The notes below the pieces were generated by a model that saw only the letters and a list, made by a program, of their open reading frames with translations, was not told the origin of the DNA and did no database searches. Both the position numbers and the translations under genes were made by a program. This document shows, in pieces, positions 5,178-64,000 of a stretch of 64,000 nucleotides of DNA. The stretch is from Ginglymostoma cirratum. Lineage: Eukaryota. The first letter of the stretch is position 1. Every line of letters begins with the position of its first letter. The stretch spans positions 15,323,245 to 15,387,244 of the forward strand of contig JAHRHZ010000081.1 in NCBI GenBank assembly GCA_024137785.1, read 5' to 3'.

Positions 5178-5356
5178 ATATGTGTCAGGATCGATTGGAG
5201 AAGGCAAAATGCTTGGGGGCCACTGTTGTCTTGAAGGTCGATAAATGTACATGTCCTATGGAACTGGCCCAGAAAGTGAAGAACTCTCTCTGTGCCATGC
5301 CAGACATATGCCTTGAATGCACTGGCTCTGATACCTGTACCCAGGCTGGTGTCTAT
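5178..5356 (+). CDS. SORD: SORD-like exon (equivalent to human exon 7)
   Basis: tttcag|AT ATG TGT...GTC TAT|gtaagt; [60 protein letters not shown]. Confidence 0.93.
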
Positions 5357-18414: not shown

Positions 18415-18420
18415 AATAAA
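18415..18420 (+). promoter_or_regulatory. Polyadenylation signal of the SORD-like gene
   Basis: AATAAA 70 nt after the stop codon, followed by GT-rich sequence (ctgtgtataactgtggtg). Confidence 0.65.
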
Positions 18421-26900: not shown

Positions 26901-28581
26901 AACTACTGTGAATTTTAAATTAAAAGGCATTTCAAATTAAAATTGCAATATAAATGGAACGTGTTGTCCGTGCCAATTTCCCTGTTTAATCATGCATACA
27001 CGGTTGGAAGAAATAGACAAACCACTCAATTACATCTCATTCAATTTTACGTAATAAATAAGAAGTTAAGAATAATTTACAGCCAAGGTAAATGGAAACT
27101 TGTTCATCAATCATAAATCATTTGATGCTATATTTATAATTAGGGAGACACCTCCTTGCTCCTTAGGTGCACTGATAAATATGCACATTCTGTGTTTAAG
27201 ATTTTACTCGGACTATTTGTAAAAGAGATCTCCGTACCCATGTGTACGAATCCATAACTCTTAGTGAGCAGCAGTACACATCTGACTCATTGAAATTACC
27301 TCTTTCACATATTAAACACAGTCTTGTTCTTCCAGTTTTAGCAACATTACATAGTAGTCAAGTTACACGTTCCAATTGCCCAACAAATGCTTGAGTTGAT
27401 TTCACAATCACGTGCTCGCAATGAGATCAGAAAGTGACACCAGGTTCTCACGTTTTTCGTGCTATTGAGAGAAAAATAAAATGTTGTGCACCCTTGATTT
27501 CTCAACCAATTCCCTGTTAAGTCTAGATCCTTGTCCGTGAATTCCAATAACAGATATAAATCTCGAAATTAAATTAACAAGGAGTTAAAACATCGTCTGC
27601 CGAATCACCGACACGATTTGCAGGTTATTACACAAAAAAGAGAAGTAGGCCATTCAGCCCCTCGAGCCTGCTCTGCCATTTAATACGATTGTGGTTGATC
27701 TTGGGCTTTAGCTTAATTTTCATGACCACATCCCTTATCCCCTGAGTCCCTGAGAGACAATAGTAAAATGTGTATCCCAGCCTTAACTGAATTCAATGAT
27801 AGAGCACCCTCAACTCTCTCGGGTAGAGAAACGCCTGAGTGAAGAAATTTCTCCTCATCCCAATCCTAAAAGATCGATCCCTTATCCAGAGATGGCGGCC
27901 CTGTGTTTTAGTTTCCTCGATCAGCAGAAGTAAAGACTCAGAATCTACTTGATCAGCCTTGTCAGAACCTGGCATTTTTCAGTGAGATGTTGACAGCATT
28001 GATATCTACATTTGCTCATTCCTAAAATCAAAACGAAAACGACTTGAAGGATGTTTGCTCTTGATTTGAAAACTCTCACAACAAAGTATACAAGGTTATG
28101 GGCCAAGTGCTGAAGAATGAGATTAGAATAGGTAGGTGCTTGTTTTCATCTGGCGCATACTCAGTGGGCCGAAAGGCCTTTTTCTGTGCTGTAGATCTCT
28201 GTGACTACAAAATGTTCACTAGGAATCCTAACTCTAATCTATTAAAGTGCAGTTCTCTCATATCCTACTGCCCATCGAGACCTTTTGTCAGATTTTGCAT
28301 GTTTAAATTTTGGCATTGTTTAGCTTCAGAACAAAAAAACATTAAGTCTGATTATAAATAATTTGTTCCTCTTCGCACAGTTGCAGTTGATCCAAGTCTT
28401 GCATCTCCAAATAGTCTGAAACAAGGTACAGGTACAAGACTGCTACATTATCAAATAATCCACAAGACTGCTCACTTTCAATGGTACAGTGTTGGCTCAA
28501 GGCGTCTCGCTGCCATTTCACAAAATAAGCTAAAGAAAACAGTCTTTAAAAAAAAATGTACACGTAGAATTTTTACATCCT

Positions 28582-28641
28582 TCAGGAGTTGCCCAGTGAA
28601 GCTGTTGCACTGTTGAGTGAGCTGGGTGTTGCGTGGTAATC
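28582..28641 (-). CDS. duoxa: Candidate terminal coding exon of duoxa
   Basis: Minus strand ctctctgttcattttacag|GAT TAC...TCC TGA (DYHATPSSLNSATASLGNS*); phase 0 fits the donor at 31371. Confidence 0.55.
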   Translation of the reverse strand, partial: DYHATPSSLNSATASLGNS

Positions 28642-31600
28642 CTGTAAAATGAACAGAGAGGAGTATTCATTCAAAAGCGATGGAGTACTTCTGCCAAATG
28701 GACTGTACACACCCATCTCCTTAGCGCCACGGAATAGTTTGCAAATTTAACCATCATAGTTCTGTTTAATTCACTTTCCCTCATGAGTCAGCCCACACCA
28801 TACCATGTTATGAGATTTACTCATTGCTGCGGTCTCGTGAATGCATCTGTGAGAATTTCCAAAGAGATGTAAGAACTGATGTGTAAAGACTGTGGACAGA
28901 AACAGTCAAACATTTAAGAGGTTGCTACCAGTGGCAACAAAGGATTTGTTTTCTGTTTAACCTCGCTGATATATAGTCACAACAGATGTGTCAATCCCAT
29001 GCCTCTCTCTCCCTTCAGTCTCCTACCTCTTTCCCACTCTTGCCATCCTTGGCTCAGAGAGCCCTGTCACCTCTAATATCAGAAAGCCAAGGGGACAAGG
29101 GCCTGCCCAAAAATTACAGGCCACACACAATCCAGTGCTGAGGGAGTGCTGCTCTGTCAGATGCACCTCTCAAGCAGAAGCAGCAGATTCCATGGTACTA
29201 TTTCGAGGAAGATTGGTGTTGTCCTGGTCACTATCTATTCCTCAACCGACACCATCACCTGGTCATTACCTGGTCATTATCTCGTTATTATTTGTGGGGG
29301 ATTGCTGTGTGTCATTTGGGTTTTGCACTTGCATTAAAACAGTAAGCAATTCATTGGTTGTAAAGAACGTTAGCATCTGCTGAAGTAGTGAAAGATGCTA
29401 TACAAATGCACATCTTTCTTTCATCCCCTCAAACTTGACCGAGGTCAAGACTTAGCTGTCTATGGAAATCTTTATTTTCCGATATTAATACAGTAACATG
29501 GTTCTTTGGTAATTAATAACATTGACTTGAAATATTGATATGTAAAAACGTCAAGTTTTCCTGCTCCTATGATGCTGCTTGACCTGCTGTGTTCATCCAG
29601 CCCCATGCTTGTTATCTCTGTAAATTACCTTTTCAGTTCCAAGCATCTTCAGTCTTAGGTATAAACAACAAAGTCCTTGTTTTCAAAGCCATTTTTAATA
29701 TTCTGGAATTAAAAGATTTGGAAACAATTAATATACATTCAAAACAGTTTCAATTCAAGGAAGGCTCATTATATGTGACTCAACCTAGAGTGACACTAGT
29801 TGTGGCATATTTTATGAATCAAGCCTTTTGCAATCCTTTGGAGTGACATTTCACAGAATTTTTGAAAGTTGGGAATACTGTATGCCACTTACATTTTTTG
29901 AGTGCCCTTAAATGTAGGGTAACCCCCAGACTGGCTCACACAGCCATGAGGCTGAAGAAAGCTTCATTTCAAAAACTGGCAAAAAAAAAAATTGGGCAAA
30001 GTATTGGGTTTTCATTAATGCTTTAGAGCAGTAATTTCCAAATGTTTTGGGTTTGTGTATCTCCCTATTCATTTTACCAAGTTGATGCATAACTTGGAGG
30101 CATGTTCTTTTTCAACCACGTTTTATAAATCCCAACCTCATCCAACAGAATCACACACTAAGCATCCCCTACTTCCAGTCCAAGGACCGTCCTGTCAGTT
30201 ACTTGCCCCTCCTCCCACACCATTCTGCCAACTCATTCATTCAGCATTCCCTCTTCCTAAACCTCCTCTTCCCTATTCACTCTGTCGAATCTTTGGGAGT
30301 CAGCTCCAGCGGTGCCTGATCATCAGTCAGTGAGCCATCTCTCCCCACCCCCACACTTGGGCTAGTCCCGCATTAAGCACCATCTGATGTACGGTCATTC
30401 GCTCTCCCACTGTTTCACGCAGAGGGCGATGTGTGTATGGAATAAGCTGCCAGAGGAAATGGTGGAGGCTGGTGTGACTATAACGTTTAAAAGGCATCTG
30501 TAGGCTATATGAATAGAAATGGTTTAGAGGGAAATGGGCCAAATCCTGGCAAATGGGACTAGATTGATTTAGGATATCTGGTCAACATGGATGACTTGGA
30601 CCAAAGGGTCTGTTTCCGTGCTATACAACTCTATGAAGCTATGTCTCTGTCTGAGAATCCCCAGCCTGTGGAGGAGAGAATTCCAAGGAATCATAATTCT
30701 TTATTTCAAAGATTCATCACTACTGATTAAACCTTCTTCTTTACATTTTCAGCTTTACACATAACCTATGGGTTCACCACAATGTTAATTGATCCCTTCA
30801 TATCAACCCTCTTTTCTTTTTGGCTTTGGTGAGCAGCTAATAGCTGAATGCCCTTCCTGCAGCCAACTCTCTCCATTCACCTGGACTGAGAATTGATACT
30901 AGTGCATGGGGTCTTGCCTGCACCAGTAACTAGATTCTTTTGTAGCCAGCAAGTCCTGGGGAGAGACTTAAATCCAGGACTTTCTGGATCAGAGGCAGGA
31001 CAATACCTGCAATTGAGCCACTCCGGTGTCCATTTGAGGAAGCTACAAATTAATGGTGATTTCTTCAGCAAGCCCATTGCAAGGACATTCTAAAACTCCT
31101 AAGAGGTAGATAATATCATTCTCTGCTGTTTTTAAATCATACTGAGCAGTGATCTCTTTCAGGTACTTTACAATTTTTATGGAACAATAATCCCTCTATA
31201 ATAATATTATATCCATTCTTAATTAAGGAGAGTATCCCAACTTTAAATAGAATGGACTTCACAGCATTACTTGAAGAGTCATTATGAGGGAGCGGATGGT
31301 TTTCCAAGATTGGTATTTCTGATTCAGAAAGAAGACATTGATAGAACTGTGAGTTCTCGTTTAAACCTACCTTTAAATATAGAGCATTTCCATATTCATC
31401 AGTAAAATTGTGGTTAATTAATCCAGTGCTCACTTCATTGTCATCGTCCTCCTCTCCATTTAGCATGAAGAATGTTCTCAGTTTCTCTGGGATACAGTGA
31501 TCCATAATGATTACAATCACTCCAAGAATGAAGCACAGCAATGCTAGATTAAAAAAGAAAGGGGTCTGTTATTTGGTGCATGTTCCTAATCTGCTCTTTG

Positions 31601-34600
31601 TGGGAATTGGGAATTTCAATGACCCAATATTAATGGTGCATGCAAGGGGTATAAACTTTGAAATTCTAACTCTGAGCTCTAATCTGCCATGTTCCCATTC
31701 AATTAAATGATTTCCAGCCAATGTCTACATGGGCGCCCTAGCCAACATCTCCGTTTGCCTATCAGGCAGACAGTCAAGCTGGCTGAGGGTCAGAGCAGAA
31801 AGTCTGCAGGGCCTCCACACTCTGAGCCTTGCCTCCATTTTCTCCTATATTGACCTCCCTTTGTCCCTTCTGTCAATACTAAAGCCTATGTTCAAAGAAT
31901 CCCAAGGCTCAATATAAAGCTTGGCGCACTATAGCACAGCAAGTTTAGGGCACCATCGTCGCCTAGCTCTATCAATGCAATAACCCAAGTTCTCAATCTT
32001 TAGCCACTTAGTATAGAAAGTGCCAGGGTTCATCCATTCCCAAAATTGAAGGAAATTGAACGGAGTCAGTTTCAGATGACTCAAAGGGGCAGTAGGTTGG
32101 TCCTCCTTCACAGCCAGGGAAAACATGCACAAACAGGTCTCAAGGGGCTACCAGGGGAATAAGGGCGTCTTGCCTAAGCATTTTCTTTCTCCTTGCACAG
32201 CGAGCTGCTGCAATCTGGAATGCGCTGACCAAAAAGAGCTGTGAAAGCAGATTCAATAATAACATTCAAAAACGAGTTGGATAAAAACCGAAAAATGAAA
32301 TATTTGCAGGTCTATAGGCAAAAAGCAGAGAGGAGGAACTGTCAAAGAGTTGATTAAGCATGAGGGACTGGGTGGGTGTGTCGTTATTTTTCTGTGATAG
32401 GAAGTTGGAATACATAGTACCCAAAAGTAGAGAATAAAAATGTCTTGGGGTCAATCTGACTCTATTTATTTTGTAATTGTTGTTTGGATTTTTCGATCAT
32501 TCGAAAGCATATTCAACAGTTCATTCAATACCCTGGCCACAGGCCGATATTTCAGCAAAGTGAAAGCCAAGCTTATGCCACCAATATGAAAGAACTGAAT
32601 GAGTTTCTATGACCCAAAGGGCATTGAGAGTTAATCACATTGTGTAGAACTTGCAGCACAATTCCACCCAGACCATGGAAAGGTGGTTGATTCCAATGGT
32701 GGAAGAACGTCAATACACCTTTTGGCTTTTTGCAAGGAAAGAAAATTGGCTACCTTTATTTTTCTTGCTTTCTAGTGTCAGGTTATGAATTGATGATTTT
32801 AATAATTTTATGGACTGAATATATCTTCTATGCAGGGAGTAGAGATTCTGAGGAAGGTTACCAGTCCTGAAATGTTAACTCTGCTTTCTCTTCACAGAGA
32901 TACCAGACCTGCAGAGCTTTTCCAGCAGTTTCTGCTTTTGTTTCTGATTTACAGCATCTGTAGTTTTTTTTGATTTTTATTGAGTGGAGACGTCAACTTG
33001 AAGCTATGTTCAAAACAACTCTGGATGCCAGTCCAGACGTGTCAAAGTGTAAGAAAATGGATTTCAACAGCTGTACTACCTATCCTTAACTTCAAGTATT
33101 TCCTGTATTTGTTCCACTAAATGCAACTAATAAATATACCTTAATTGTTAATGAGACTTAAAGCTTAATAATTTCCTCTATATGGTCTACTAAGCATCAA
33201 ATATTTTACTATATTGGCCGATATTGATTTCTTGCCAGTCCCTTGGAAACTTATAAGTAAAGACCCCCTGATTTTGCATTGAATAATTTCAGAAGATAAA
33301 ATAACTTGCAGACATTGCTTGTGGTATTTTCTGGGCAGCCTCAACACTAGGAAAACCAACAGAAGAAAAATTATCCTGATACTACTGCAAGTGTCTGATT
33401 CTTTAGATCAGTATGTCTCCTGTATTCTGAAACACACGTTCACTATGCTTACCAGTTGCTAATGTCAGCCAGAAGGACCCACTGAAATTAGTCTTCAGTG
33501 TTGTCGGACCAAACTGAATGATGCATGGAGATACATTCTGTACAGTCGCAAATGAGATGACTCCGAAGATCATGAATCCAGATGTGACCAATGCCATGTA
33601 GCCTCCGTACACAATAGTTGACATGGAGAAGAGAATATTAGTGATGATCCAGGCACAAAATGCCACCCTAATCCAAAAAGATCAAGAACACAACATTAGG
33701 TCAAAGTAGAGATCTTTGGCACTTCTAAACATTTATTCCGCTAATATGACTTTCCTTTGCTCAATATGATAGTAATCTAGTCAACTAACAATCAGCTATA
33801 CTAGCATCTGGATCTCCCTTCTGACATGATCTATATCTTATCTTGAAACCAGTTTTTACACTGCGTATGTACTTCTTCTAGATGCATCAACTGAACATGT
33901 TGTCCACTCTGCACAGGTAAGTGCGGGATAATTGAGCTAATTGATTTTTCACAATAAAACATTGCATGATGCCAATTTTCAACAGGAATGTTGAATTTCT
34001 CAAGTCACCAAACCATCATAATTTAGGTTAAATTAGACCTGCATTTCTCTGAGTGGATTGGAATAATAACAAGTCAGGTCTGGGAACTTTAGAGACCGTA
34101 GTTTCCCCTGCTCTGTTATTAAGGATGCCCTCAACCACCTCTCCCCCATTTCCTGCACTTCTTCCCTCTCCCCCCAACAACAATAAGGATAGAGACCCCT
34201 TAGTCCTCACATGCCACCCCACCAACCTCTGAATACAACACACCGTCCTTCAGCATTTCTGCCACCTACAATCAGACCCCACCACCAAAAAGATATTTCC
34301 CTCCTCACCCCTATCCACTTTCCTCAGGGACCGTTCACTCCATGACTCCGTCATCAGCTCCACACTCCCCACCAACCCCTCGACCATAGCCCGTACCTTT
34401 CCTTGCAACTGCAGGAGGAGCTACACCTGCCCCTACACATCCCCTCTCAACTCCGTCCGAGGCCCCAAGCAATCCTTCCAAATTCAGCAGACATTCACCT
34501 GCACTTCATCTAATTTCTCCTAAAGTATCTGTTGCTCCCGATGCAGTCTCCTTTATATCTTTATACGTAGACTTGGGGATTGGTTTGTGGAGCACCAGTG

Positions 34601-37600
34601 CTCTACACGTACCAACCAACCTGACCTTCCAGTTGCCATTCACTTTAACTCACCCTCCCACTGCCCTGGTGACATGTCCATCTTTGTCTCCTCCACTGTC
34701 CAAGTGAGGCCAAGTGTAAACTGGAGGAACACAACACCTCATGTTTCGCCTTCGGAGCTTACAGCTCAATGACCTGAATATTGACTTCACCAGCTTCAAA
34801 ATCTCTCCTCCTCCAACCTGTCCATTGGCTGACTCACCTATCTGCTCCACCCTTTCCACTGACCAACCACAATAACCCTCTACATGCATTCGCTTATCTC
34901 TATCTCACCTACACTCCCCCCAGCCCTATTCCCTTCCCCTTATTTATTGCTGGACTTTCCTCCCCCTCCCCAGTCCTGACGAAGGATTTCAGCCTGAAAC
35001 ATTGATTTCCCTGCCTCCTTGGATGCTGTCTGACCTGCTGTGCTTTTCCAGCTCCATGTTCATTGACTCTTGACAATAAGAAGTCACTTGGTTGAAAGCT
35101 TGTCAATTTAGCATAGGTAGATAAAAGGATAAAGCTGCATTTTTTTTAAAACATTGAGATCTCGTTTAGGAATTTGGAAAGTAGAAATTGTAACACAGGG
35201 GAATGTAATTTTGTTCATGCTAGCAGTTTTGGTTCCAGCTCCAAATACCATCCTGTCTCATTTTTCTGTGTTTTCTCCCCTTGTACTGATTAATACATTA
35301 CATTCAATGATTTAAACAACTCCCACTTAAACACTGCAATTGATTCAGCTTCATTGACTCCTTGCATTAGTGCATTCCATAGTTTAATAACCCTTTGTGT
35401 GGAGAAAGCACCTTCAAACCTGTCCTTTACTTTTACATTCATGACCTCCTTTGGCCAGTGGTAATAATCTCTTGCTATTCAGTCTCTTTAAAGGTTAATT
35501 CTTGAGGCTCCTTCACCTTTCTTGCTCCAATATTTTCAGCCCTAGTGTTTTGGTTGCATTATCAATGTTTTCATTTTCCTTCCTCTTCCTTCATCTTGGA
35601 GGAGAGCCAAATGCCATGATACATCCTCTATAATTATGTCCTTTCTTCTTTCCAAAACTGATGTCACATACCTCGCAGACTTTTGTTTAATGACAAACTT
35701 TCATTCATAGTCTTGCTTTAGAGCTTAATGTTCATGTTCCCTTTCTCCGGACTTTTTTTACACTGCTCTATATCATGTTACAGGGCTGTGGTCGCAGCTA
35801 TCAGTCATACTGTCAGTGTAGAAACTGCAACCTCAATTTTACTTTGTTGGCTTGAAAATGCCTCAATCCAGCTGTCAGATCGTGTGCATCTCCTACATTT
35901 TGAACAGCTGTAGAAGAGATGTTAGGCAGTCTGCTTACTCTTCACCCATTTGAGCCCTTTAAGTGCCTAACTCAGGGACTCCCAATGCTGTTGGTCTTTC
36001 ACAAGGCAAGGCATACCCTGCAAAGTGGCTGCATGCTTAAGCTGCTGGACAAAGCAGCTCATTGTGTCCCTCTGTGCTGGTTTGAGTCCTACTGGATACA
36101 ATATAACCTTCCTCTATGTGTTGTGTGATGCAAAGGTTGTGTCCCTACCTCTGGGCCAGAAGGTGTGAGTTCAAATTACACCTTATCCAGAGTTGGGTGG
36201 TAACATATGTCTACGGGATGATTAAAAATAGTTCTTCATGAGCCAGTCTCTGTGCCCTGTTGGGAGGAGTGTCAATGCTTGGACGTTGTACAAAGGCCCT
36301 CCTTAGGTTAAAAAAAAGTCAACTATGCTCCATTCCTCCACTGGCCCCAATAATTCAATGAATTGCCAGAAACATGCGTAATTGTGTCTCTGCATTCCAC
36401 ATTTATTAACTCTCCCTCGCACAGCTGAAGGCACTGTTTAGGGTGAAAACGGTACAATGTATCTTGGGGTAGACTGGAGAGTGGCAATGGCTTCATTAGC
36501 TAGCGAACACAGTCATTAAAAACTTTCACCAATATGCCTTCCTGCTTGGGCATTCTCTGCTGCTAATTAATAAATCGCTCGATGTACAGATTCAACTTCA
36601 CTTTTTGTTCGGGTTGAATTGGAATTCGTACCATGGTTAGGAATTTAGCTCCATATTCAATTCAGAACTGTTCCGTTTGTTTCCCCTTGCAATCGCTACT
36701 ATCCTGGATTCTGAGTCTAAACTCTGCCTGCTTGATCTTGGAATAAAGTGAACCCCTTCATCTTCAAAATGCATCAGAAATACAAATAAAAAAGCATGGA
36801 TGTGTTTTGCTTACCACATCATGGCTGTTGCATAATGTCCAGAGAACCTGTACTGGTCATGAATAAGGCAGGGGTTCTTGCTCTGAAACTTCTCAGCAAC
36901 ATATAAAATTGGATGTGGAAGCCCTCGATTAAGCCCATTGTTATATTGCTCATCATAATTCAGTGCAAATCTCCACAGAAAATTCTCGTTGTAGTCTATG
37001 GTTTCATTCAGCTGGTTCTCAGGGATTCCTGTAAGCACATGGTGTGAAGCATCACCACATGTTAATTCACCTTGCAGTGAGCAAAAATGATAAATATATC
37101 CTCAAAGTAACACTTTGCACTTGACGAAAATCAAAACACTTGAACTTAAGAGTACAATGGCCAACCATTAGCAAGTGCATCTGCGTTGAATCACCCATTC
37201 CTTTTTGTGTCTACTTAAGCTAGCAGATTGTGGGCTAACTACATTGTAAACATATTAAGGGCCAGTTTCCTGCATATGGCAGTGAAATTATAAGCACATC
37301 CTTTCACAGAGCATTTGCCACTACCAGATTCTACCAAATTGGATGCGGTATTAAGATTGGTACCAGAAGAAATTTTCACAAATACAGTGTTACCCCACAT
37401 CCTTGTCAATGGATGATGAATAATGGAATCCTAAATCAATGTATTATTTTCTCAATGTTATTTTTGTTTTATTTAAATGTGTCCCTATTATATATCATAT
37501 CAGAGTATCAATTGATTCTTATCCACTGGTTTACAGTAACAACAAAGTTTGTTTAATCCTCGAAGGCAGACAAGCTAAATTGCTTTGGCAGAGATCTGAC

Positions 37601-40330
37601 ACAGATTGTTGGGTTGAGTGTGCACTTTCTGTGGTTCTCAAGTAAGTTTCTGTTCATTGCAAACTATTGGTGCATTTAGCTAAGTAGTAACACTGCTCCT
37701 GCTCTTTTCTGAAGAAACACCTAACACCAATTGCCGATCTCTACCTGTTGAACAATTGTTTATAAATCGATAACAACTCAAAGACAATTATTGCCACAAG
37801 AGATATTTGTGATGCAGACGTAGTGTCCCCACCCCAAACTAGGAGGCCTGGATTCAAGTCCCACCTGCTCCGTAGATGTGTAATGACATCTCTGAAACAG
37901 GTTGATTAGGGAAATAAGTTACTTATTAAAAAATTATCGTCGCAAGGAAATGCCTTACCTCTCAGAGTCACATTAATTCCTGCCAGTCCAACGTGGAGCC
38001 CTACTTCTGCAGTGATTATCTCGTTACTGAAAGCCTTGTAAATTGTGCTCACCCTGGCAAATCCAACTTCCCAGTCACCAGTAAAGTTCACCACTGCAGA
38101 ATGAATAATAAGTCCGTTAACTCTGTTATTATCATGGCCGAGGGTCTGATTTCCCTAACTGGTTATTAAAAAGTCATTGTGTTTTAGAAGCCACACTGAG
38201 CTAAACCCCACCTTTGGTAAATAATATCCAGAATTCATCCATATGATTATAAACCTTGCACTTTGCATCGGGAATTAACACAGCTCTCCCGTTTAATGAT
38301 TGAGAAACTAATGTGGGTAACATGAGACTTTAAAATGAGAAGTTACGCTTTCCAATGTGTCCTGAGCAAATATAATTGGTTTTTGCCTTCCTGTGGGACT
38401 GACTTGATTCCCCATTACTGTCAACATGAAATTTTCTATAATAAGAAATGAAAACCGAAAATGACGGAGAAGCCTAGAGGGTCAGGAAGTGACAGTAGTA
38501 GAAAAACACAGTTAATGCAATAGGTCTGGCATTCTAATGAAAAGGTGTTGACTCCCTGGTTCTGTGGGAGTTGTGATCTACCAGATAGTCATGTGATACT
38601 GATTATTGAGAGGGATCTCTTTATGTATCCTGCATATTCCAAACTTCAGCTATGCAGATTTCAGGCAGACACCTTTTCTGGTCAAGAAAAGAGACAATAA
38701 AACCCAGCTCAAAAAGTTACACACCACATTATTTGCATTCCATGTGCATTGAGCCTGAAAGCCATTGGATCAGAGGACCTTCCAAAACCCAGGCTGGCCC
38801 ACATATGTTATCTGTGTATTTCATAGATCATAGAATGATTACATCCTCACTCCTGAGCTGTGGGGAAGCAACCAGGAGCACTTTCACAAGCTTCAAAATC
38901 TCCCCTCCCCCAGCATGTCCCCGCCTCCTTAACCTGTCCTTCCTCCCACCTCTCCACTCCTCCCACCTCAAGCCCCAGCCCCATCTCCTACCTACTAGCC
39001 TCATCCCACCCCCTTGACATGTCCGTCCTCCCTTGACTGACCAACCCCCTCCCTACCTCCCACCTACACTCACCTTTACTGGCTCCATCCCCACTTCTTT
39101 GACCTGTCTGTCTCCTCTCCACCTACCTGCTCCTTTATCCATCTTCCATCTGCCTCCCCCTCTCTCCCTATTTATGTCAGAATCCCCTTCCCCTCTCCCA
39201 TTTCTGAAGAAGGGTCTAGGCCCAAAATGTCAGCCTTTCTGCTCCTCTGATGCTGCTTGGCCTGCTGTGTTCACCCAGCTCTGCACCTTGTTATCTCGCA
39301 CTCTCCCTTTAGGACAGGATGCAGTTTAAGTTTGTTACCTGGTTTACAATCACCAACTCTTTTGTCTGCCCAACCCTTTCATATCTCTCTCTCCCCCAGT
39401 CTCTCTGGGCTCTGTCTCCGCCGATCTCTCATCTCTCCCCCTACCCCAAAAATACCCCTTTTTCCAAGCTGGAGCAGTCTAATGAACAGTTACCGAGACG
39501 TTAATTCCGCTTTCTCTCCCCACAGATACTGCCAGCCCCGCTGAGTTTCTCCAGCAATTTCTGCTTTATTTTGGTTACAGATTAAGTTAGATCTTAGCAG
39601 ACTCGTTAGAAAGCAGAACCTATTATGTCTCGGTCGTGAAATTTGCAGGCGTAATATTATTTATCGTTTTTTTAAAAGAAATGGTAAATTGCACGTACCT
39701 ACAATAACAACTCCAACAAAGAGGCTTAAAATAATTCTGCAGAACGAATAAACTCTCTGAAAATATAAATCAAACATGCAACGTTTTAAACAAACGAAAA
39801 AAAGTTTCATTCGTTAATTTCATATTGCGATGTTTCACGAGACTCAATGTTAAAACCGCCACCAAGCTTCGTGAATTTGTCAAGTTAACATGAAGGAACG
39901 AAAGGACTTGAAATTGACACCCTGCGGTGAAAATTATAACTTTGAAGCGGAACATCGGCGTAACGAATTTCAGCGCTCAACCCCCATTTCCCGCATCTCC
40001 ACACCCTCTCTTCCTCTCTGCTAAACATTGGCTGGGAAGAGGGGTTGCAACGAGGGGCTCTGGCGAATGAAACTTCGCTTTTAAGATCGAAACTGATCAA
40101 CTGCAGTGGATAATGAGGCGAGTTCTGGTTCAACAGAGATGAAAAAAACAAAGGGGATTCCCACTCCCCCGTCCATCACTTACCCCTTTCCCTCTGATTC
40201 CCGGTAGGATAATGAGCAGTGTTAGGGTAAGCACCAGGAACACCAGGATAACCACGAGTAAAGTGATGGCGAAAATGAACGAGGTTCTGTCGTGGGGGTA
40301 AAATGGTCTAATTCCGTTAAAGAGAGTCAT
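28582..40330 (-). CDS. duoxa: Dual oxidase maturation factor (join 40330-40184, 39756-39699, 38093-37959, 37028-36815, 33667-33453, 31543-31371, 28641-28582; 333 aa)
   Basis: MTLFNGIRPFYPH...LPGIRG, YKAFS, GL.GINVTL, QLNETIDYNE, GLPHPILYVAEKF, GHYA, FWLTLATA are DUOXA family motifs. Exon sizes 147/58/135/214/215 with GT-AG and consistent phases. The last small exon is inferred. Confidence 0.93.
31371..31543 (-). CDS. duoxa: duoxa coding exon 6 (frame stays open to a stop at 31137 if unspliced)
   Basis: tttaatctag|CA TTG CTG TGC; ALLCFILGVIVIIMDHCIPEKLRTFF (last TM helix), acidic EEDDD stretch; donor TTAAAG|gtaggt. Confidence 0.88.
33453..33667 (-). CDS. duoxa: duoxa coding exon 5
   Basis: 215 bp; VAFCAWIITNILFSM...YGGYMALVTSGFMIFG...FWLTLAT|gtaagc. 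Confidence 0.95.
34090..35065 (+). mobile_element. Penelope-like retroelement 3' portion (GIY-YIG endonuclease remnant plus terminal repeat)
   Basis: Remnants PLVLTCHPTNL, CSRCSLLY and EHQCS...DLPVAIHFNSPSH, followed by a terminal repeat with ctgacgaagg...ctgaaac. Confidence 0.8.
36815..37028 (-). CDS. duoxa: duoxa coding exon 4
   Basis: 214 bp; GIPENQLNETIDYNENFLW...GLPHPILYVAEKF...GHYATAMMW. Confidence 0.96.
37959..38093 (-). CDS. duoxa: duoxa coding exon 3
   Basis: 135 bp; VNFTGDWEVGFARVSTIYKAFSNEIITAEVGLHVGLAGINVTLR. Confidence 0.96.
38885..39297 (+). mobile_element. Penelope-like 3' end
   Basis: agcttcaaaatctccc + C-rich tract + ttctgaagaagggtctaggccc terminal repeat, homologous to 34790-35065. 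Confidence 0.75.
39699..39756 (-). CDS. duoxa: duoxa coding exon 2
   Basis: 58 bp; ttttcag|RVYSFCRIILSLFVGVVIV|gtacgt. Confidence 0.93.
40184..40330 (-). CDS. duoxa: duoxa first coding exon (exon begins 40352 with 22 nt of 5' UTR)
   Basis: MTLFNGIRPFYPHDRTSFIFAITLLVVILVFLVLTLTLLIILPGIRGKG|gtaagt; preceded by a pyrimidine tract and acceptor ctgcag. Confidence 0.96.
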
Positions 40331-48522: not shown

Positions 48523-51500
48523 GTGAGTCATCTTGCTTTTTTCAATGTTGACCATTGTGGACTTAAGTCATAGACTGCTATAGAGTGGAAAAGATAGTTG
48601 GTGGTGGCAGTTTGGAATTCACTGCCTTAGAGGGTTGTAGAGGCAGGAAGTCTCATAATATTTAAGATTTACAAGAATGTTGCCAGGTTTGGAGGGTTTG
48701 AGCTATAGGGAAAGGTTGATTGGCTAGGGTTATTTTCCCCAGAGTGTCAGACGCTGAAGGGTGATCTTATAGAGGTTTATAAAATCATGAGGGGCATGGA
48801 TAGGATGAATAGCTAAAGTCTATTTATCAGGTGTGGAAAGTCCAAAACTAGACGGGCACAGGTTTAAGATGAGAGGGGAAAGATTTAAAAGGGGCCTGAG
48901 GGGCAACTTTTTCATGTAGAAGGTGCATGTATGGAACAAGCTGCCAGAGGAAGTGGTGGAGGCTGGTACAATTACAACATTTAAAAGGCACCTGGATGGA
49001 TACATGAGTAGGAAGGGTTTAGAGAGATATGTGCCAAATGCTGGCAAATGGGACTAAGTCAGATTGGGATGTCTGATCGGTGTGGACAAGTTGGATCAAA
49101 AGGTCTGTTTCTGTGCTGTACAGCTCTATGACTCTAAGTATTGAGGTGTACACAAGATATGTAAAGCTATGAGCCGAGTGGTGGAAAATGGGATTAGAAT
49201 AGTTGTTTTTGACCAGTCTTGACGGACCAAAGAACTTTTTTCTGTGTTATAGATCGCTATATGATTCTATAAGTACCTGTGTTAGCTCTTAGACATTTTT
49301 AACCAGTCTGCTAAGACATATTATGACATGCCTCTAGACCAGTTTGGACCTGAATCCATACTTCAGAAGTAGGGACAATGCAACAATGCCACAATAGCCT
49401 CCCACACTCGTCCAGCTCTTATGCTTATTCTTTCTTGATGGGAATATGGACATTTAGAACATAGAACATTACAGAGCAGTACAGGCCCTTCGGCCCTCGA
49501 TGTTTTTTTTTTAATCAATGTTGCACATAATTATTTAAAAATATTCCATTTACACAAGTTTGTCACAGTACGATTCTTAAATTTTTAAAGTTTATTGTGG
49601 AAACATGTGCTTTAGTTAACCATAGTTCGTTTGGCATGAATAGCATAAAATAGTTACCAGTAGTTTTTTTCCCCCCAATGTATTAGAAGGAACATTTTGT
49701 TGAAAAGGCAAAAAGTCTGAGGCACAGCTTTACAAACCAGATACAAAAAAATCAGAAATATAATGTTCAACTTGCATGAACAAGACATCACTAAAATACA
49801 AAAATCCCTTTATCTTAAATCAACTGTTAAAAATATAGTGTATAAATTGCAATGATGTGGTTCAAGTCAGTAGAAATGCATTTTACAGTTTCAAAGCTTA
49901 CAAATAGGCTCAGATATAAAATTTCAAGTGCTTGACAACTTACCTTGAGAAGTGGAATATGAAAATTGCGTTGTAACAGTAGAAAGGAACTTTAAAACAG
50001 ATCACAAGATACAGGTGAGACAGGCCATCCAACCCTTAATCATGTAACTTCACTGACTCTTGAAAGAGTCCAAGGTTTTTTGCTTCATGAATCCAAGACG
50101 CTCATTTCAGGCATTAATGGGCAATGCTCAAAGGCCAACCTCAGACCTATGCTCAAATGTTTCCTTCTGCAGTTTCAGCCTATTTAACATTTTCTATTAT
50201 CCCACCCAGCATGTCTACATGTTTTTGGCCAGACAAGGAGTTATCGCCCATCCTTAATCTTTCCAGAGATTGTCTTTGTTTCAGCATCACAGACTAACGT
50301 CCATTTTCTGATAATTTATTTCAAGTTACGAAACTTGTTTGCAATGTGATAATGAATCAGTTTCTTGTTTATTGACCAACCTGCCTGGGTTTTTAACAGC
50401 TTAAGTCATAAGGTGGGGACTTAAAGCCAGGACCTTATGTTTCAGGGACCAGAGTACTGCCAACTGAGCCACAGCTTAACTCTTACTGCTTAGTCTCCAC
50501 CTTGTCCCTCAGTGCCATTGCTCTCTCCACATAATCCTGCAATCGACTCCATATACTAATTGTACTGCAATATATTCAATATTTGAAAGTGCAGCCATCA
50601 CATTGAATTATTCTTGAATGATTTATAAATTATAAGTTTTTTTGTGGACATGCACAGATCTATTCCCTTATTAATTAGAATGTGTTTCAAAGTAGGGCTT
50701 CACTTGTCAATGTTTATTCATTTCATATGACGTGTGCTTTACTTGAATGATTAATCTGAGCACTTTCATGTTGGTTACTTAATATCATTTCTCTCTTAGC
50801 TGCTCAGCAGAACATCAACTGGGAGACACAGAGATATGATGGATGGTATAACAATCTTGCCTTTCATAGTCGAGGAGCAGCTGGTAAGAAGCCATCTCTT
50901 CAATGCTTGGTCAATTTCTAATTCACAAGCAAACATATAACTCATCTTTAGCTTGAATTAGTTCCAAATATTTAAGTTGTATGTTAATATCGGTGACATT
51001 CAGTATGGAATCAGTGGAGCTTGAATTAAGAACTTGAATGGGGTTTGGTATCAGTACTCACCAGCGTACATGGTATTACCATAATTTTCATTCTAAAAGT
51101 TTGCTTCCTGAAATACACCAGTTACTAAAAGCTGAAGTCTCCTTAGACAGAAAGAGAAACATGCGGTGTGTTTAACCTGAGGGTCTTCACATCTCAGGCA
51201 AAGTTGAGAAGGTGGCACCTTCATTGTAACCTCAGCCACTATAGGAATTGAACCCACAGTGTTGGCATTACTCTGCATCACAAACCAGCCATCCAGGAAA
51301 CGGAGCCATCAACTATTAAAGCATCATTTGGTTGTAGGGAACGTTAACATGGCTAAAAGAAGACAAGAACTCAAACACTTTTGTCTTGAACTTGTTGCGA
51401 CTAGGAAGCAAGAAATGAACTGGAGAAGAGGGAGACCCTGTTCTTGGGCCAGGCAGGTAGACTCTGATTGGTCAGATTATATTGATAGCTAACTGTTCTT

Positions 51501-54500
51501 GCTGTGTCTCCAAGCTCAACCAATCCGCACCCTCTCCTCATGCTGTCCATTTTTTCTAGTCTGGTTTTTTGTGTCCTTGTCCCAGTTGAGTGCAAGGCAA
51601 AAAGCTTCAACTCCTTGCCTCATCTCAACAATATCCCAGAATCTTAGACAAATAGAAGATTTACAGCACACAAGAATCCTGTTTGACCCATTGTATCTGG
51701 CTGAAAAATAATTTTCCAGTCAAATCCAACTTTCTGGTACTTGATCAGTAGCCCTGTAGATACAGCACTACAGGTGTATTTCCAAGAATTTTTTCTTGAA
51801 AATGATGAGGTTTCTAGTTGCTACTACCTTTTTTTTCAGGTAATAGGTTCCAAACCACCACCCTCTGGGTGAAAAACAATTTTTTTTGAGCTCCCTTGTG
51901 CCTTCTGACAATTTCTTTAATTTTATCCATTCTTGTTATTGACCCCATTGTTAACAGAAATAAGTCCTTCCCATAACCTCTCTCTAGGTTCCTCAAGTTT
52001 ATACACCTCACTGAAACTCTACCTTAGTGCCAAAGCAAACATACCCACCTTGTCCAAGTTTTCCCCACAGCTAAAAGTTCTCCAATACTGATAGAATCGT
52101 TGTAAATCTCTAGCCTAGTGCAATTACCCCTTCCTGTAATGTTGTGAGCTGAATGGTATGCAGTACTCTAACTGTGGTCTATCCACTGTTTTATATAGGG
52201 CTACTTAGCACTACCACCATCGGGGTACGGGCTCCTTGTGTAGATATTTTTAATTCAGACACACTTCTGGTCTAGGTGGAATCTCTTATTTATTGGATGT
52301 GAGCATTACATGTAAGGGCGTCCTTTTATTGCTCACCTCTAACTGCCCTTGAGAGTTAAGAGTTGACCAGATTGCTATGGATTGGATGGATATTTCCTCC
52401 CCTGAAGGACATGAGTGAACCAGACAGCTTTTTGCAATGCCTAATGATAATTTCACGCTTATTATTCCTGGCTTGCAAATCCAGATTTATCAGTTCAAGT
52501 TCCACCAGTGGCCACTGTAGGATCCTTCCACCACAGCATTGGCTTAGAGTACAGCCCAATGACATGACATTACACTGCCACTTTCCCTAGTTTGTCTGAG
52601 TAAAACCTGCTTCCCTTAAAGCAGCTACAAATTTACCATTGAATTAATGGTTTTAGCAATGTGAAGCCCAAACTATTCCTTTGCTTTTAGTGTCTAGTAG
52701 TTCCAGTTATATCTTCACAGAAACAAGAGGTGCAAAGCTACCGCACTTCAGGTTGGGGAGGAGACACAATAAGAGAAATGCTCAACAGGATACAAGCAGA
52801 AGGACAGCACTGTGGCTCAGTGGTAAGCACTGCTGCCTCACAGCGCCAGGGAGGCTCAGTGGTTAGCACTGCTGCCTCACAGTGCCAGGGAGACGGGTTC
52901 AGTCCACCCTCAGTGGAGTTTGAACATTCTCCCCATGGGTTTCCAAAGATGCTGCGGTTTCCCCCCACAGTCCAAAGTTGTGCCGGTTAGAGTGGATTGG
53001 CCATGCTAAGTTGCCCATAGTGTCCAAGGATGTGCAGCTATGTGGGTTAGCCATGGGCAATGCAGGGTTACAGGGATAGGGGTGGGGAGTGTGGTTCTGG
53101 GCGGGATGCTCTTCAGAGAGTCAGTGTGGACTCGATGGGCTGAGTGGCCTGTTTTCACACTGTGGGGATTCTATGACTTACAAGGTGTGGTCGCAGTGGG
53201 ATTATAGCTGGCAATCAGCTGCATATCTGAGGTGAAAAAAGAACCCTGATGTTTATAGGAAATGCCCACTCTCTGCAGCTGAACGTCACTATTGTAATAG
53301 GAGTTGTTTTTTTTGGCAAAGTGCTGCTCACTGAACCATGCTCCACTGTGCCTGATAATTTCTAGGGAACAAGTTGTGCGCAGGGGTAATTATTGCAGTG
53401 CATGGTTGGTCAGTCAAAATAATATGCTGCTTCCCCTGCAATATAATAATGTGCGTTTCTTTTTGCAGAATCGCCTTTTATGCGTCGGTTGCCTGCTCGG
53501 TATGCTGATGGGGTGTACCAGGCTTTCAGTGAGCCAAAAGTGCCGAATGCACGAATCCTCAGTAATATCATATCAAAAGGATCAACAGGACTTCCTTCCA
53601 TCAAGAACAGCACGGTGCTTAGTGTTTTCTTTGGTAAGGATTCAGGCTATGAGGATGCGCACAGCTCCAGTGTTACAAGAACAAGGGAAGGGAGTTACCT
53701 ATGGCTGTTCTCTCTATCTAATTGTGCTTACAATCCAGCCACCAGGCCTTTACAAGCACAATTGCTACATGTGGTGACCAGAGAGAAACTTCCTCTTGCA
53801 TCCTCAATTCATTTATTTTATTCACTCATGAAATGTGGATGTCTCTGGCTAGGCTAGCATTTATTGCTCATCTCTAATTGCCCAGAGGCCATTTAGGAAT
53901 CAACCACATTACTATGGGTTAGAAGTCACGCGTAGGCCAGACTAGGTAAGGAAGGCAGATTTCTTTCCCTACAGGACATTAGCAAGCCAGATGGCTCTTT
54001 TTCCCCCAACAATTGCAATGGTTTCATTGTCATTTTTTGACCCTTATTTCCAGACTTCTTATTTAATTCAAATTCTACCATCTGCCAGGCAGGATGTGAA
54101 CCCAGATGGCCAGAACATTAGCTGAGTGTCTGGATTAGCAATAATGCCACTAGGGCTATTGCCTCCCCTTTCCATCTAATCTATTTGCCAGTATCTTGAC
54201 TCCTCTGGTGTGAGAGGAATATGGAGTGGAAGGTAATTGTTGAAAAGTTGGAAGGTTTATTTTGTAAGAATTCATCTTACTTAAGACATACTTGGAAAAA
54301 GGAGTATCCTGGTTTCTATGTACCGTGACATTGTAAATGCATCTATGGTGGAAGTGCTGGTAAAGTGCAGCATCTATCTTCATAGCTGTGTTTTTCCTAT
54401 CTGTCTATCCATTCTTTTTATTTTTGTCAGCTTAGTTCATGTAGTTCAATTACAAAGTTCACTAGAATTAATGAAAATTAGCTTTTTCCCCACAGCAAAA

Positions 54501-57500
54501 ATAAATCCTTGAATTAGAGCTGGGGAAATTCATTTTGAAATGGAGCACCTTGCATGTAAATAAGAGGATAAATTAATGGGGAGATGCTACAAGTGATTAG
54601 ATGTAGGCCCCATGTAGAGAAGAAAAATTTTTGGAGCAGAAATGAATGATTTGGATCTCAAAATCACATGCAAACTGACAAGTTGTTTGTTTATCAATTT
54701 AATAGAATTGGAAAAATGACCAGTTTTCCGCGACTGAGCACATTATTCAAGTGGGTTTAAAGCCAAGGTGAATGTTTCATTGCTGCTTCAAGAAATCCTG
54801 AGACCTTTCCCTCAGTTTGACAGGAGTTTCTTTAATAGATTTACTAGTTTGGTTTTGAATGAGAAATTATATGATAAATAATCATTTTATTTTGCTCTTC
54901 CATACTCCTGCAGGATACCATGTAATGTTTGAGATTTTAGACACAAGGCATCCTGCCTGCCCCCCTGAGTTCATGGATATTGTAATTCCACATGGCGACT
55001 CAGTTTTTGACCCCAATGGGACGGACGGTGTGAGGCTACTGTTTCAGCGAAGTGGGTGGGATCGCCGCTCAGGGCACAGCCCCAACAATCCGAGGAACCA
55101 GGTAAGAGGGCTAAGTGGAGAAGAACGGTCAGAAACACATTAGAACTTCTAACCAATCAAAGTAATGACCTCTAGCCCCACCAAGTGTGTACAGAAGGGA
55201 CAGATCACGTCAGCTGGTTGAGGGGGCACTTCAGAATCTGCCTTCTGTCTCTTTCTTTTCCTTTCTGAGTGTACCTCTGAGATCTATACACAGCAGCAAT
55301 TTCTGAAACCGGATGTCAATGCGACTGCTTAGAGGCAACAGGGTTCAGGAAATGTCAGCGCAAGAACTGCAGACATCTCCACGTTCCCTGCGCCCTGGTG
55401 TCAGCACCAGTGCAGGCGCAGAGGTCCCAACTTTATTTCACATTTAAAGATGATGGCCAGTCCCCTGTGCTACCTTGGCCATTCCCTGTCGAGTTCCCTG
55501 ATGGTTTCTCATTGCCTAGCCTGCGAATTAGTGCCAGCAGAGATGTTAGGAAGCATTTCTACATACAAATTGTGGTAGGTGTTAGGAACTCTGTTCCAAA
55601 ATAAAATGGCAGTGGACGCTGGATCATTTGTTGATTTTATATCTTGAGATAGATGAAGTTTTGTTAAACAAAGATATTAGAGGATAAGGGCCTAAGGAAT
55701 TTCTCCACATGATATCATTTAATGGTGGATCAGCCTCAAAGGGCTGAATGGCCTAGTCCTGTTCTTGTCTTCTGAAGTTCTGGGGCAAGGCAGGGGGCAC
55801 AGGCAAGGGTCGAAGTGCCCGTTGGTACCTAATGTCATCTGTTTTGAATCTTTATGGCATTTGTTTTTCCTTCTTGGTGGTGAATAGTTAAATTATTTAT
55901 CTAATCCATTGCAGAGCCTCAGCGAATATCTTCTGCCCCAGGAATTGGTCTCCAGGGTGCCACCCAAATACCTTGGCAAAAAAAATTACAGGACAATAGC
56001 AAATGGCAGTTTCCCATTTTGTTTGAAATCTTTCACTTATTAAAGACGTCAGAAAACTATTCAACGCTTCCAAATGATATTGGCTTCCTCTTCGCACACA
56101 TGTAATCTTTGTGCCACCTTCAGCGTTAACAGATACACAGTACTTCTGAATGTTCTCCTTCCGCACAGCAAAGACATCAAAAATACCTACCCACTGCTGA
56201 GACCTTAAACTCTATTTCGTGCTGCCCATTTGCACCCACAGCAGCCCCTGTACATTAAAATGATTCTGTATGAAGGTATTGAGATAATAGAGATGTAGAA
56301 TGTACTAAGGAAATGCAAAATTTGTTTCATCCTTTACCGTGATTTTGGGGTGAGATATCTGAGCCCTGTTGCAATTACATTATTAGTCTAATGCTTATTT
56401 TATTTTTCATTGCCAGTTATCTTCTGTATTTAATTGTGCAAGTGTTGACCTGATTTTTTTTTTGTGTAGAGATGGAGGGACTGAGAATTTAATACGTTTA
56501 ATGTATTAAATTGGCACCTCAGTTAGTGTCCATATAGCACATTGTCTCAACACTATTGCCAATTAGAGGCCACAATGGACAAGAAAAACAAAGAGGTTGT
56601 TATTGTGTGCAGAGACAAAATAACTGCAGATGCTGGAATCCAAGGTAGACAAACAGGAGGCTGGAAGAACACAGCATCTGGAGGAAGGGAGAAGTCAATG
56701 TTTTGGGTATTACCCTTCTTCAGGACTCTGATTATTTATTGGTTATTATGTACATATCTTTCAAAGCATTCACCTAAAAAGACTCTACATGCTGTCTGTA
56801 TACACTATTGAAACTCTGTCTGATAGTCTGCTATAGGTTTGCAAGCTGCACACACAGAAAGCAATTGACTTGGTGTAATGCCTGCTTCTTAACTTATAAT
56901 ATGTTTTACTTTTTTAATTAAACTGGCCCACACATCAAGCAGTCACTGAAAAGCAATTGATTATTAGACCATTGTCATTCACATAACAATGATTAGCAAA
57001 CATGGCTTAGAAGAGGAAGATAAAGAGGAAAGGTAGCAGGCTATACCAGGAATAGGCAGATCAATGAAGTTAATGAACCTGTCAGAGACAGAAAACTGAA
57101 TCAGATGGACTTTGTAACTTTTTCTTTCTGTTGGCTTGTTCTTAATTCATTTCCATTCATTTTCAACAGCTCAATGAAGTCACCGCATGGATAGATGGAA
57201 GCTCCATTTATGGATCTTCCCATTCGTGGTGTGATGAGTTACGAAGTTTCTCTGGTGGTCGACTTGCATCTGGCTCAGACCCACTGCTTCCAAAACCCAG
57301 TACTGGAAAGTTGCCTATGTGGAATCACCCTGATCCAACCACTGGCCAGACTGGCCTCCAAGGATTTTACGGTGATTATATATCATTTTGAACTTGTGAC
57401 AAGTGAATAATAGCAATTAGTCTTTATAATTTGTTGTATGTACTGCTGTGGTCAGTATCATGCCAATGTAAAACAGGCAGATGCAGTAATATTGAATATT

Positions 57501-62741: not shown

Positions 62742-62944
62742 GTACGGAATTCAAGTGGTTAAACTCCCAAGATCACATCCAGTGATGGAGTACAGATAGT
62801 GTCGGGATTTGTAATTGCCTACAGCTTTTCCATGCCTCTCCTCTTTGATGGCAAAAAATGACGCAAGAAATTCAGGGCAGATTTTTATAAAACACCAGTT
62901 TGATATCAACTAGAGTATTGAGAGCAGACATGGTTTTAATGTGG

Positions 62945-63530
62945 AAGCAAATTACTGCAGATGCTGGAATCTGTATGGAAAACAACAAATGCTGGAGATC
63001 ACAACAGGTCAGGCAGCATCCATGGAGAGAGCGCAAGCTAATGTTTTGAGTCTAAGATGACTCTTCATCAGAGCTGATGTGAAGTCTGGAGGAGACAGCA
63101 TTTATGCTATATTTGGAGGAGTGGGGGTGAGTTGGTGTCGTTTGAGTGGGATATTGGGTGCTGGTGGAGGAAAGATATTGATAGTTCAGATTAAGTGATT
63201 GGAATGTGAGAATGACAGAACAATGGTGTCTAACTGCCAGACTTGAAAGAGAAGACAGTCCCACTGGGGTGGGGTGAGGGGAGAGAGGACATGGTGACAG
63301 AGAATGTAACAAGTAAGGCTAAAAGAAAAGGAAGGAATGGGAGCTGGTTCACAATTTGAAGGTGCTGAACACAATATTAAGTCCGGAAGGCTATGAAGTG
63401 CCCCATCTGAAGTTGAGATGTTGTTCCTCCAGTTTGTGCTGTGATTCACTGGAACACCACAGCATGCCAAGGACAGACGCGAGCGGGATGCTGTGTTAAA
63501 ATGACTGGCTTCAAGAGGGTTGGGGTCATT
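62945..63530 (-). mobile_element. Penelope-like 3' portion
   Basis: Minus-strand remnants EASHFNTAS and KLEEQHL (GIY-YIG C-terminus), then a terminal repeat with ctgatgaagagtc...gactc. Confidence 0.8.
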
Positions 63531-64000
63531 ATGTTTTAATGTGAATAATTCTAAGGATCGGGAAGAAGGGTTATGAGGACAGATAGGGACTGTTCTCCTT
63601 TTGAGAAGATTGAGAAGAGATGTCATACAAAAGCTGGAAGCATTATAAACTGGGAGGAGGACAGTGTAGAACTCCAAAGGACCTAGAGAAGTTGGTGGAG
63701 TTGGCAGATTAGTATCATTTTGGTAGGAAGAGCATGCACAGACAGTCCAAATGGGGAGATTGATATGACCAGTACATTCATTTCTATGTATTACTGGTTT
63801 CTGTCTCTGATTTGCTAATCCTCAGATGGGGAGTCCAGAGATGACGGCCTTATGATATTATCACTGTACTATTAATCCAGAGACCCTGGTAATGTCTTGG
63901 GGGAGAAAAAATTGCGGATGCTGCAAATCAGAAACAAAACAGAAATTACTGGAATAACTCACAAGGTCCGGCAGCATCTGTGGAAAGAAAGCAGAGTTAA

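Follow-up and report, generated by a model that had tools for sequence, protein, structure and literature searches.

The stretch of DNA analysed here (hereafter the window) comprises 64,000 nucleotides (nt) of Ginglymostoma cirratum, contig JAHRHZ010000081.1, and carries the 3' part of a gene resembling sorbitol dehydrogenase (SORD), including an exon which is unusually rich in cysteine. We found that this gene is almost certainly a SORD paralogue and not the housekeeping SORD. It belongs to a clade of shark and ray proteins which we term E; the names E, D, B, C and A are labels coined in this analysis. Residues are numbered according to the Stegostoma E protein P0129, which matches the three window exons at 58/59, 40/40 and 79/79 residues. 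The parts of the gene found in the window are:

5178..5356, + strand: Cys-rich coding exon of the SORD-like E gene, spanning the Rossmann domain from the NAD-Asp strand as far as the helix which follows ECTG; 8 Cys (6 gained); 59/59 residues identical to P0127 and 58/59 to P0129
9275..9396, + strand: following coding exon (122 nt), which encodes FRY; 40/40 residues identical to P0129
18104..18344, + strand: last coding exon; encodes FECVKK, the C-terminal end of the core and the tail, and closes with the TGA stop (18342-18344); 79/79 residues identical to P0129
18246..18341, + strand: C-terminal tail of 32 residues, with 5 Cys, 12 Gln and 3 Pro (62% Cys, Gln and Pro)
18415..18420, + strand: AATAAA polyadenylation signal, 70 nt past the stop

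The Cys-rich exon, which we take to be the equivalent of human exon 7, is 179 nt long with a canonical AG acceptor and GT donor, and consists of 2 nt of a split codon followed by 59 full codons (frame from 5180). Its eight Cys codons start at 5183, 5210, 5246, 5252, 5291, 5309, 5318 and 5336. The best match among solved structures was human SORD (PDB 1PL6), with 2 Cys across the equivalent stretch, and the count of 8 versus 2 given in an initial annotation of this DNA was therefore borne out. So was the additional Cys which it placed in FECVKK of the last exon; the human chain has Thr at that site, and 9 of the 15 E proteins carry the Cys. The same annotation described the nicotinamide adenine dinucleotide (NAD)-binding D....R, ECTG and FRY motifs as intact. 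The Arg, ECTG and FRY are all encoded within the window. The codon of the NAD Asp is split, its first base belonging to an upstream exon for which tblastn gave no match in the window; because all 15 E orthologues have Asp at this position, it is very likely to be present here too. The residue after FRY is Thr in the window exon and Cys in other SORDs. Beyond these three exons, tblastn found no further SORD exons across the 64-kb window, so the first six exons, including those for the zinc ligands, would lie upstream of it.

With the exon as query, 7 proteins were retrieved from 7 candidates (85-98% identity), six of them named from sharks or rays, and their clusters contained 21 members. Several more SORD-like proteins per species were found in cluster look-ups and among the best 120 of 437 matches in a wider search. 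Of 180 proteins, 28 were dropped (window pieces, fragments, isoforms and mis-models). An alignment (A2) was made of 124 proteins selected from the family: 15 E, 11 D, 10 B, 4 C, 2 A, 1 tailed chimaera copy and 81 other SORDs, the latter comprising 65 from named bony vertebrates and 16 others. A tree of 62 selected proteins (whole core, midpoint root) contained four clades at 100% bootstrap: E (15 rows, the clade of the window gene), D (13), B (8) and C (6). Clade E (support 100/100) held all 15 full-length shark and ray E proteins, apart from D, B, C and the canonical-type copies, which supports the proposal in the initial annotation that this is a specialised paralogue. It was the A-type copies (P0101 and P0050), not E, which grouped with bony-vertebrate SORD (98/84), while D, E and the chimaera copy lay on one side of a 99/97 branch. 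E is thus one of several co-orthologues of bony-vertebrate SORD and not its one-to-one orthologue. The window exons were 98-100% identical to E and 44-67% identical to other copies; copies within one species were approximately 59-63% identical to each other.

These copies appear to form a chondrichthyan array of four or five SORD genes, and a tandem arrangement is suggested by several observations. The records of the four Heptranchias copies (E, D, B and C) give contigs of identical size (22,115,696), and the records of the Stegostoma copies E, D, B and A likewise give one shared contig size. In C. punctatum, a 725-kb scaffold carries both E (chiPu_0015746) and D (chiPu_0015748). In Pristiophorus, one gene model unites a C-type piece, at 81% to C, with an E-type gene, at 86.5% to E; this implies that the two are head-to-tail neighbours. 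The "second tandem copy" of the initial annotation was therefore right in that the gene is an extra copy and an understatement of the number. The chimaera Callorhinchus, whose lineage split approximately 420 million years ago (PMC6238376), also has a tailed SORD-like copy (P0207 = XP_007908228). It should be noted that the E model of S. torazame (P0010) ceases to follow the rest of the family partway through its last exon, and that no full-length catshark E was among the matches; E may be damaged or unannotated in catsharks.

We compared the Cys content of this exon across the family. E proteins contained 7-8 Cys, D 4-7, the chimaera copy 5, A 3, B and C 2 and the other 81 SORDs 1-4. A similar Cys content in fish or chondrichthyan SORDs generally would, according to the initial annotation, have spoken against a specialised copy; in this exon the others are not Cys-rich, and the objection fails. 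The binomial probability of at least 8 Cys in 59 residues is 2e-5 to 1e-3 (backgrounds of 2-3.5%), and the family comparison is a better control for the count than this chance expectation. Two of the eight are ancestral, namely Cys247 (81/81) and Cys253 (53/81 of the other vertebrate SORDs). The remaining six are gains, seen in 0-1 of the 81 other vertebrate SORDs. They stand in place of Ser, Glu, Gly, Thr or a gap, and most of these positions fall within loops or near the ends of helices. Taken as a proxy, the residues replaced and these positions would agree with the surface location suggested by the initial annotation.

Cys was gained outside this exon as well. Cys13, 27, 77, 142, 155, 188 and 199 have reached or come close to fixation in E, two of them at sites which are invariant in 81/81 SORDs (Ser155 and Ala188), while Cys116 and Cys298 have been lost. 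Cys makes up 6.6% of the core in E versus 3.5% in the 81 other vertebrate SORDs. Among the fixed derived residues of E, 11/59 are Cys (binomial P = 3e-6 at 3.3%) and 7/59 are Lys; the numbers which are Cys in the other copies are 1/28 in B, 1/34 in C and 5/40 in D. A directional gain of Cys, as initially proposed, is thus well supported. E contains CxC motifs and two CxxC motifs, one at 199-202 around the NAD Asp and the other at 244-247. In the window the first CxxC straddles the NAD Asp at 5178-5185, its first Cys coming from the upstream exon, and the second lies at 5309-5320, ending at the Cys of ECTG. The overall composition has also shifted, with a median of 24 Lys in E versus 17 in the others and a median Lys/Arg ratio of 2.18 versus 1.12; the medians for Arg (11 versus 15), Met (8 versus 9) and aromatic residues (18 versus 20) are lower in E.

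The exon is also exceptionally well conserved within E. Identity between sharks and rays was 88.6% in E, 71.3% in D, 73.9% in B and 67.7% in C, and identity between mammal and bird or reptile SORD was 64.3%. Invariant columns numbered 46/59 in E, 24 in D and 32 in B. Among the four regions compared, this exon ranks lowest in conservation in B, C, D and amniotes, and highest in E. In DNA contigs of a relative, all 4 listed exon differences were synonymous (17 of the 24 contig differences being listed). A burst of change on a long stem followed by strong constraint indicates that E acquired a new function.

E retains the fold of the enzyme. An AlphaFold2 model of P0129 (predicted local distance difference test, pLDDT, 87) superposed on human (1PL6) and sheep (3QE3) SORD with TM-scores of 0.88-0.89 and a root-mean-square deviation of 1.6 Å. 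P0129 matched Pfam ADH_N and ADH_zinc_N above the cut-off and has the two-domain medium-chain dehydrogenase/reductase (MDR) fold, GroES-like plus Rossmann. The catalytic zinc ligands of SORD are Cys44, His69 and Glu70 (PMC9512048). In E the ligands Cys41, His66 and Glu67, together with Glu152, were present in 15/15 proteins (a test on orthologues, the zinc-ligand exons being outside the window), as were Gly176, Gly178 and Gly181 (GxGxxG), Asp200 and Arg205 of the NAD site; the Arg of FRY is Lys in 7/15. Absence of the structural-zinc loop is a mark of the polyol dehydrogenase (SORD) family (PMC2792335), and in the alignment the corresponding region of E contained no Cys cluster, Cys102 being replaced by Val. 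E therefore very probably still binds zinc and NAD, judging from these residues.

The substrate pocket is different. In human SORD, Tyr50, Phe118 and Thr121 presumably line the polyol pocket; in E, Tyr47 has become Phe, Phe115 has become Thr, Met or Gln, and Thr118 has become Phe, Leu or Ile. These three residues are kept in 0/15 E proteins versus 79, 79 and 81 of the 81 outgroup SORDs, so that E lacks the canonical pocket. Several of the changes are common to the tail-less copy C, while D and the chimaera copy keep the canonical residues. Sorbitol may thus not be the substrate of E. The N-terminus of E aligns from human residue 6 onward; because there is no N-terminal extension, there would be no room for a signal peptide and the protein is expected to be cytosolic.

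Cys/Gln tails were found in E, D and the chimaera copy P0207, and the A, B and C copies and bony-vertebrate SORD have none. The E tail is predicted to be disordered, with pLDDT < 50 at 352-379 of the P0129 model. Cys, Gln and Pro make up 62-79% of these tails, from 62% in the window gene to 79% in P0207, whose 48-residue tail has 9 Cys, 18 Gln and 11 Pro and is, to our eye, presumably the most SPRR-like of the set. The D tail (P0013-P0021 and P0140-P0157) has a Gln-rich CxxxC pattern without Pro, in which Cys at i, i+4, i+11 and i+15 is nearly invariant across sharks and rays. The suggestion in the initial annotation that the Cys gain was independent of the tail is doubtful, because the copies with additional Cys in the body (E, D and the one from the chimaera) are also those with a Cys/Gln tail. 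No Pfam family matched the tail, a search of short proteins gave no match among 66 candidates, and a search of cluster representatives returned one unrelated repeat protein only. Sequence homology to cornified-envelope proteins of the epidermal differentiation complex (SPRR, LCE) was not found.

The two halves of E gave different trees. In the block 30-140, E grouped with C (92/99) and a grouping of E with D was rejected (approximately unbiased test, p-AU = 0.008), while E with D and the chimaera copy was not (p-AU = 0.094). In the block 141-347 without the derived Cys columns, D, E and the chimaera copy grouped together (81/98) and E with C was not rejected (0.16). The groups tested were named after the trees had been seen. 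E shares 10 derived residues with C only (P0129 30-140, mostly in the substrate-binding half), for which exon exchange between tandem neighbours or convergence is possible. It is suggestive only, given these mixed tests, that E may be a mosaic with a C-type substrate pocket and a D-lineage surface and tail.

Downstream of the SORD-like gene the window contains:

28540..40330, - strand: DUOXA neighbour gene, with its ATG at 40330; 3' end approximate; from exon translations
50800..64000, + strand: animal haem peroxidase gene, probably DUOX, head to head with DUOXA and continuing beyond the end of the window

Pfam DuoxA matched three exons of the former (E 2e-8 to 3e-25) and An_peroxidase matched 2/3 scanned exons of the latter. 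A single DUOXA was seen between the SORD-like gene and the haem peroxidase gene. Human SORD, as we understand its synteny, also has DUOXA and DUOX as neighbours; because the neighbourhood is thus presumably ancestral, we dropped the idea of a functional tie between E and the adjoining DUOX.

Clues to expression are few. The only evidence of E transcription is a Logan contig of 916 bp. It codes for 205 residues which match skate E exactly over several exons, and so points to a spliced E transcript. Of four sequencing runs compared with the window, two gave genomic contigs of a relative and two matched repeats only, so that none bears on expression. Logan-derived members made up 13/15 of those listed in one B cluster, 9/12 and 3/3 in C, 1/21 in E and 2/24 in D; the scarcity in E and D is a weak hint of narrower expression. 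One skate Sord copy, which may or may not belong to E, is abundant and regionally biased in the pectoral fin (PMC10115646), a point in favour of an epithelial role. In the 2 of 5 "sord" rows of that data set which were covered, Sord-4 had a baseMean of 2809 and a log2 fold change of 2.47, and Sord-3 a baseMean of 24 and a log2 fold change of -4.46, anterior versus posterior fin. In favour of sperm, human sperm proteomes list SORD (PMC7826524), and chondrichthyan sperm flagella contain longitudinal columns (PMC8812575). In the supplements available, no SORD match was found in PMC6312339 (6/9 files), PMC8379299 or PMC8455134 (12/24 files).

Our best explanation, to which we give a probability of about 0.5, is that E was co-opted for covalent cross-linking or tethering in a terminally differentiating cell, such as that of a sperm tail or an epithelium. 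On this explanation E would be a neofunctionalised SORD paralogue from a tandem array expanded in cartilaginous fishes. The thiols of a cytosolic protein would be reduced in an ordinary cell, and because E has many conserved thiols, an oxidising, maturing cell is favoured; a thiol-rich body with a Cys/Gln tail would fit a cell which oxidises at terminal differentiation. Disulfide and transglutaminase cross-linking are the established chemistry of cornified and sperm structures. Folded E subunits could be fixed to one another or to a scaffold via disulfides, possibly with transglutaminase links from tail Gln to body Lys, and E would then be a tethered NAD-linked dehydrogenase or a structural block. 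As to where this might happen, the sperm flagellum is a tentative candidate and superficial skin or fin epithelium a slightly more tentative one. A fuller scenario, doubtful as a whole, is that a housekeeping dehydrogenase became a covalently cross-linked block by gaining surface Cys and Lys and fusing to an SPRR-like Cys/Gln/Pro tail before the chimaera-shark split, serving in sperm longitudinal columns or hardened epithelium and converging with amniote cornification proteins. Several points weigh against cross-linking. The catalytic and cofactor residues are fully kept, so that a plain enzyme would fit equally well; the Cys at the Ser155 and Ala188 sites are probably buried; the tail of the window gene has no Lys; and Pfam, short-protein, atlas and cluster-representative searches revealed no homology of the tail to known cornification or sperm proteins. 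In the accession list of a catshark semen proteome (PMC11083954), 0/6 shark SORD accession patterns matched a SORD entry, a weak test, since the table contains nothing but accessions and the E model of the catshark is cut short within its last exon. "Sorbitol" was likewise not found in one file of a shark skin-mucus proteome (PMC10707392), which is also weak.

The invariance of the zinc ligands, Glu152, GxGxxG, Asp200 and Arg205 in 15/15 E proteins would equally suit a soluble dehydrogenase which acts on a new polyol or on some other substrate, its thiols serving as a redox switch, an oxidant buffer, a zinc or copper store or an internal stabiliser and taking no part in structural cross-linking. 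The altered pocket, shared in part with the tail-less C, and the two CxxC (199-202 and 244-247) and CxC motifs agree with this reading. It leaves unexplained the disordered 12-Gln tail, kept in two elasmobranch copies and the chimaera copy, and the parallel gain of Lys, and the structural-zinc loop region is without a Cys cluster; we regard it as possible but somewhat unlikely. Selection of Cys for refractive index, as an enzyme-crystallin of lens or cornea, is improbable. Gamma-crystallins are Cys-rich and enzymes have often been recruited as crystallins (PMC11118217), among them zeta-crystallin of the MDR family (PMC2792335); however, crystallins are enriched in Arg, Met and aromatic residues (PMC11118217), in all three of which E is lower, and a review reports that no taxon-specific crystallins have been found in fishes (PMC13643694). 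A disordered Gln/Cys tail and a gain of body Lys without Met or aromatics fit cross-linking, and fit a refractive role poorly.

The Cys might instead be S-acylation sites which anchor an otherwise normal enzyme to a membrane. Cys stands beside Lys in the exon, and the D-tail Cys at i, i+4, i+11 and i+15 would share one helix face; the gain, however, covers the whole fold (positions 13 to 334), well beyond what a lipid anchor needs, and we consider this idea no less improbable than the crystallin one and perhaps slightly more so. Relaxed selection, or a mis-annotated and decaying copy which gained Cys by drift, is very improbable indeed. The long E stem branch (0.31) would agree with it, and the S. 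torazame model which breaks off in the last exon may mean that the copy is damaged in one lineage, but E is intact in 15 full-length shark and ray proteins, its Cys-rich exon is the best conserved of the four regions, and the exon differences listed from the relative's DNA are all synonymous.

SORD is generally regarded as one metabolic gene. Databases name E-type proteins "sorbitol dehydrogenase-like" and the skate annotation numbers several Sord copies, so SORD multiplicity in these fishes is already on record; in the literature searched (subscription journals and some supplements being outside its scope) we found no description of the chondrichthyan array, the Cys enrichment or the tails. 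Within this array, the exon which otherwise varies most is, in E, the most strongly conserved. If cross-linked, E would be a named candidate for a shark-specific structure, sperm longitudinal columns or hardened epithelium, for which we found no described proteins, and a clean case of the recruitment of an enzyme to a structure. If only an enzyme, the pockets of C and E would still point to an uncharacterised substrate in sharks.

E is a member of the polyol dehydrogenase family (PMC2792335) which departs from canonical SORD in its pocket and its orthology. Like E, vertebrate SORD (MDR, PDH family; 1PL6 and 3QE3) has this fold and these zinc and NAD residues, at 55-56% identity, and presumably the same position beside DUOXA/DUOX. 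Unlike it, E has approximately double the Cys content, a higher Lys content, a Cys/Gln/Pro tail of 32 residues and an altered polyol pocket, has lost Cys116 and Cys298 and is one of 4-5 tandem copies. The low-complexity Cys/Gln/Pro tail is similar in composition to what we take to be typical of SPRR/LCE, ODF1 and SMCP, but has no detectable homology to them, and in E the segment is fused to an intact dehydrogenase. To our knowledge a cross-linking tail is not a feature of crystallins, and E, unlike the enzyme-crystallins, shows no gain in Met, aromatics or Arg; zeta-crystallin nevertheless provides a precedent for an MDR enzyme in a structural role (PMC2792335). The D copy and the tailed Callorhinchus copy share with E the extra body Cys (4-7 in the exon) and a Cys/Gln tail, and share a chromosome-scale contig with E or with the canonical copy. 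They differ in being approximately 62% identical to E, in their canonical pocket and in their tails, that of D being Gln-rich with CxxxC and without Pro and that of Callorhinchus Pro-rich, both unlike the tail of E.
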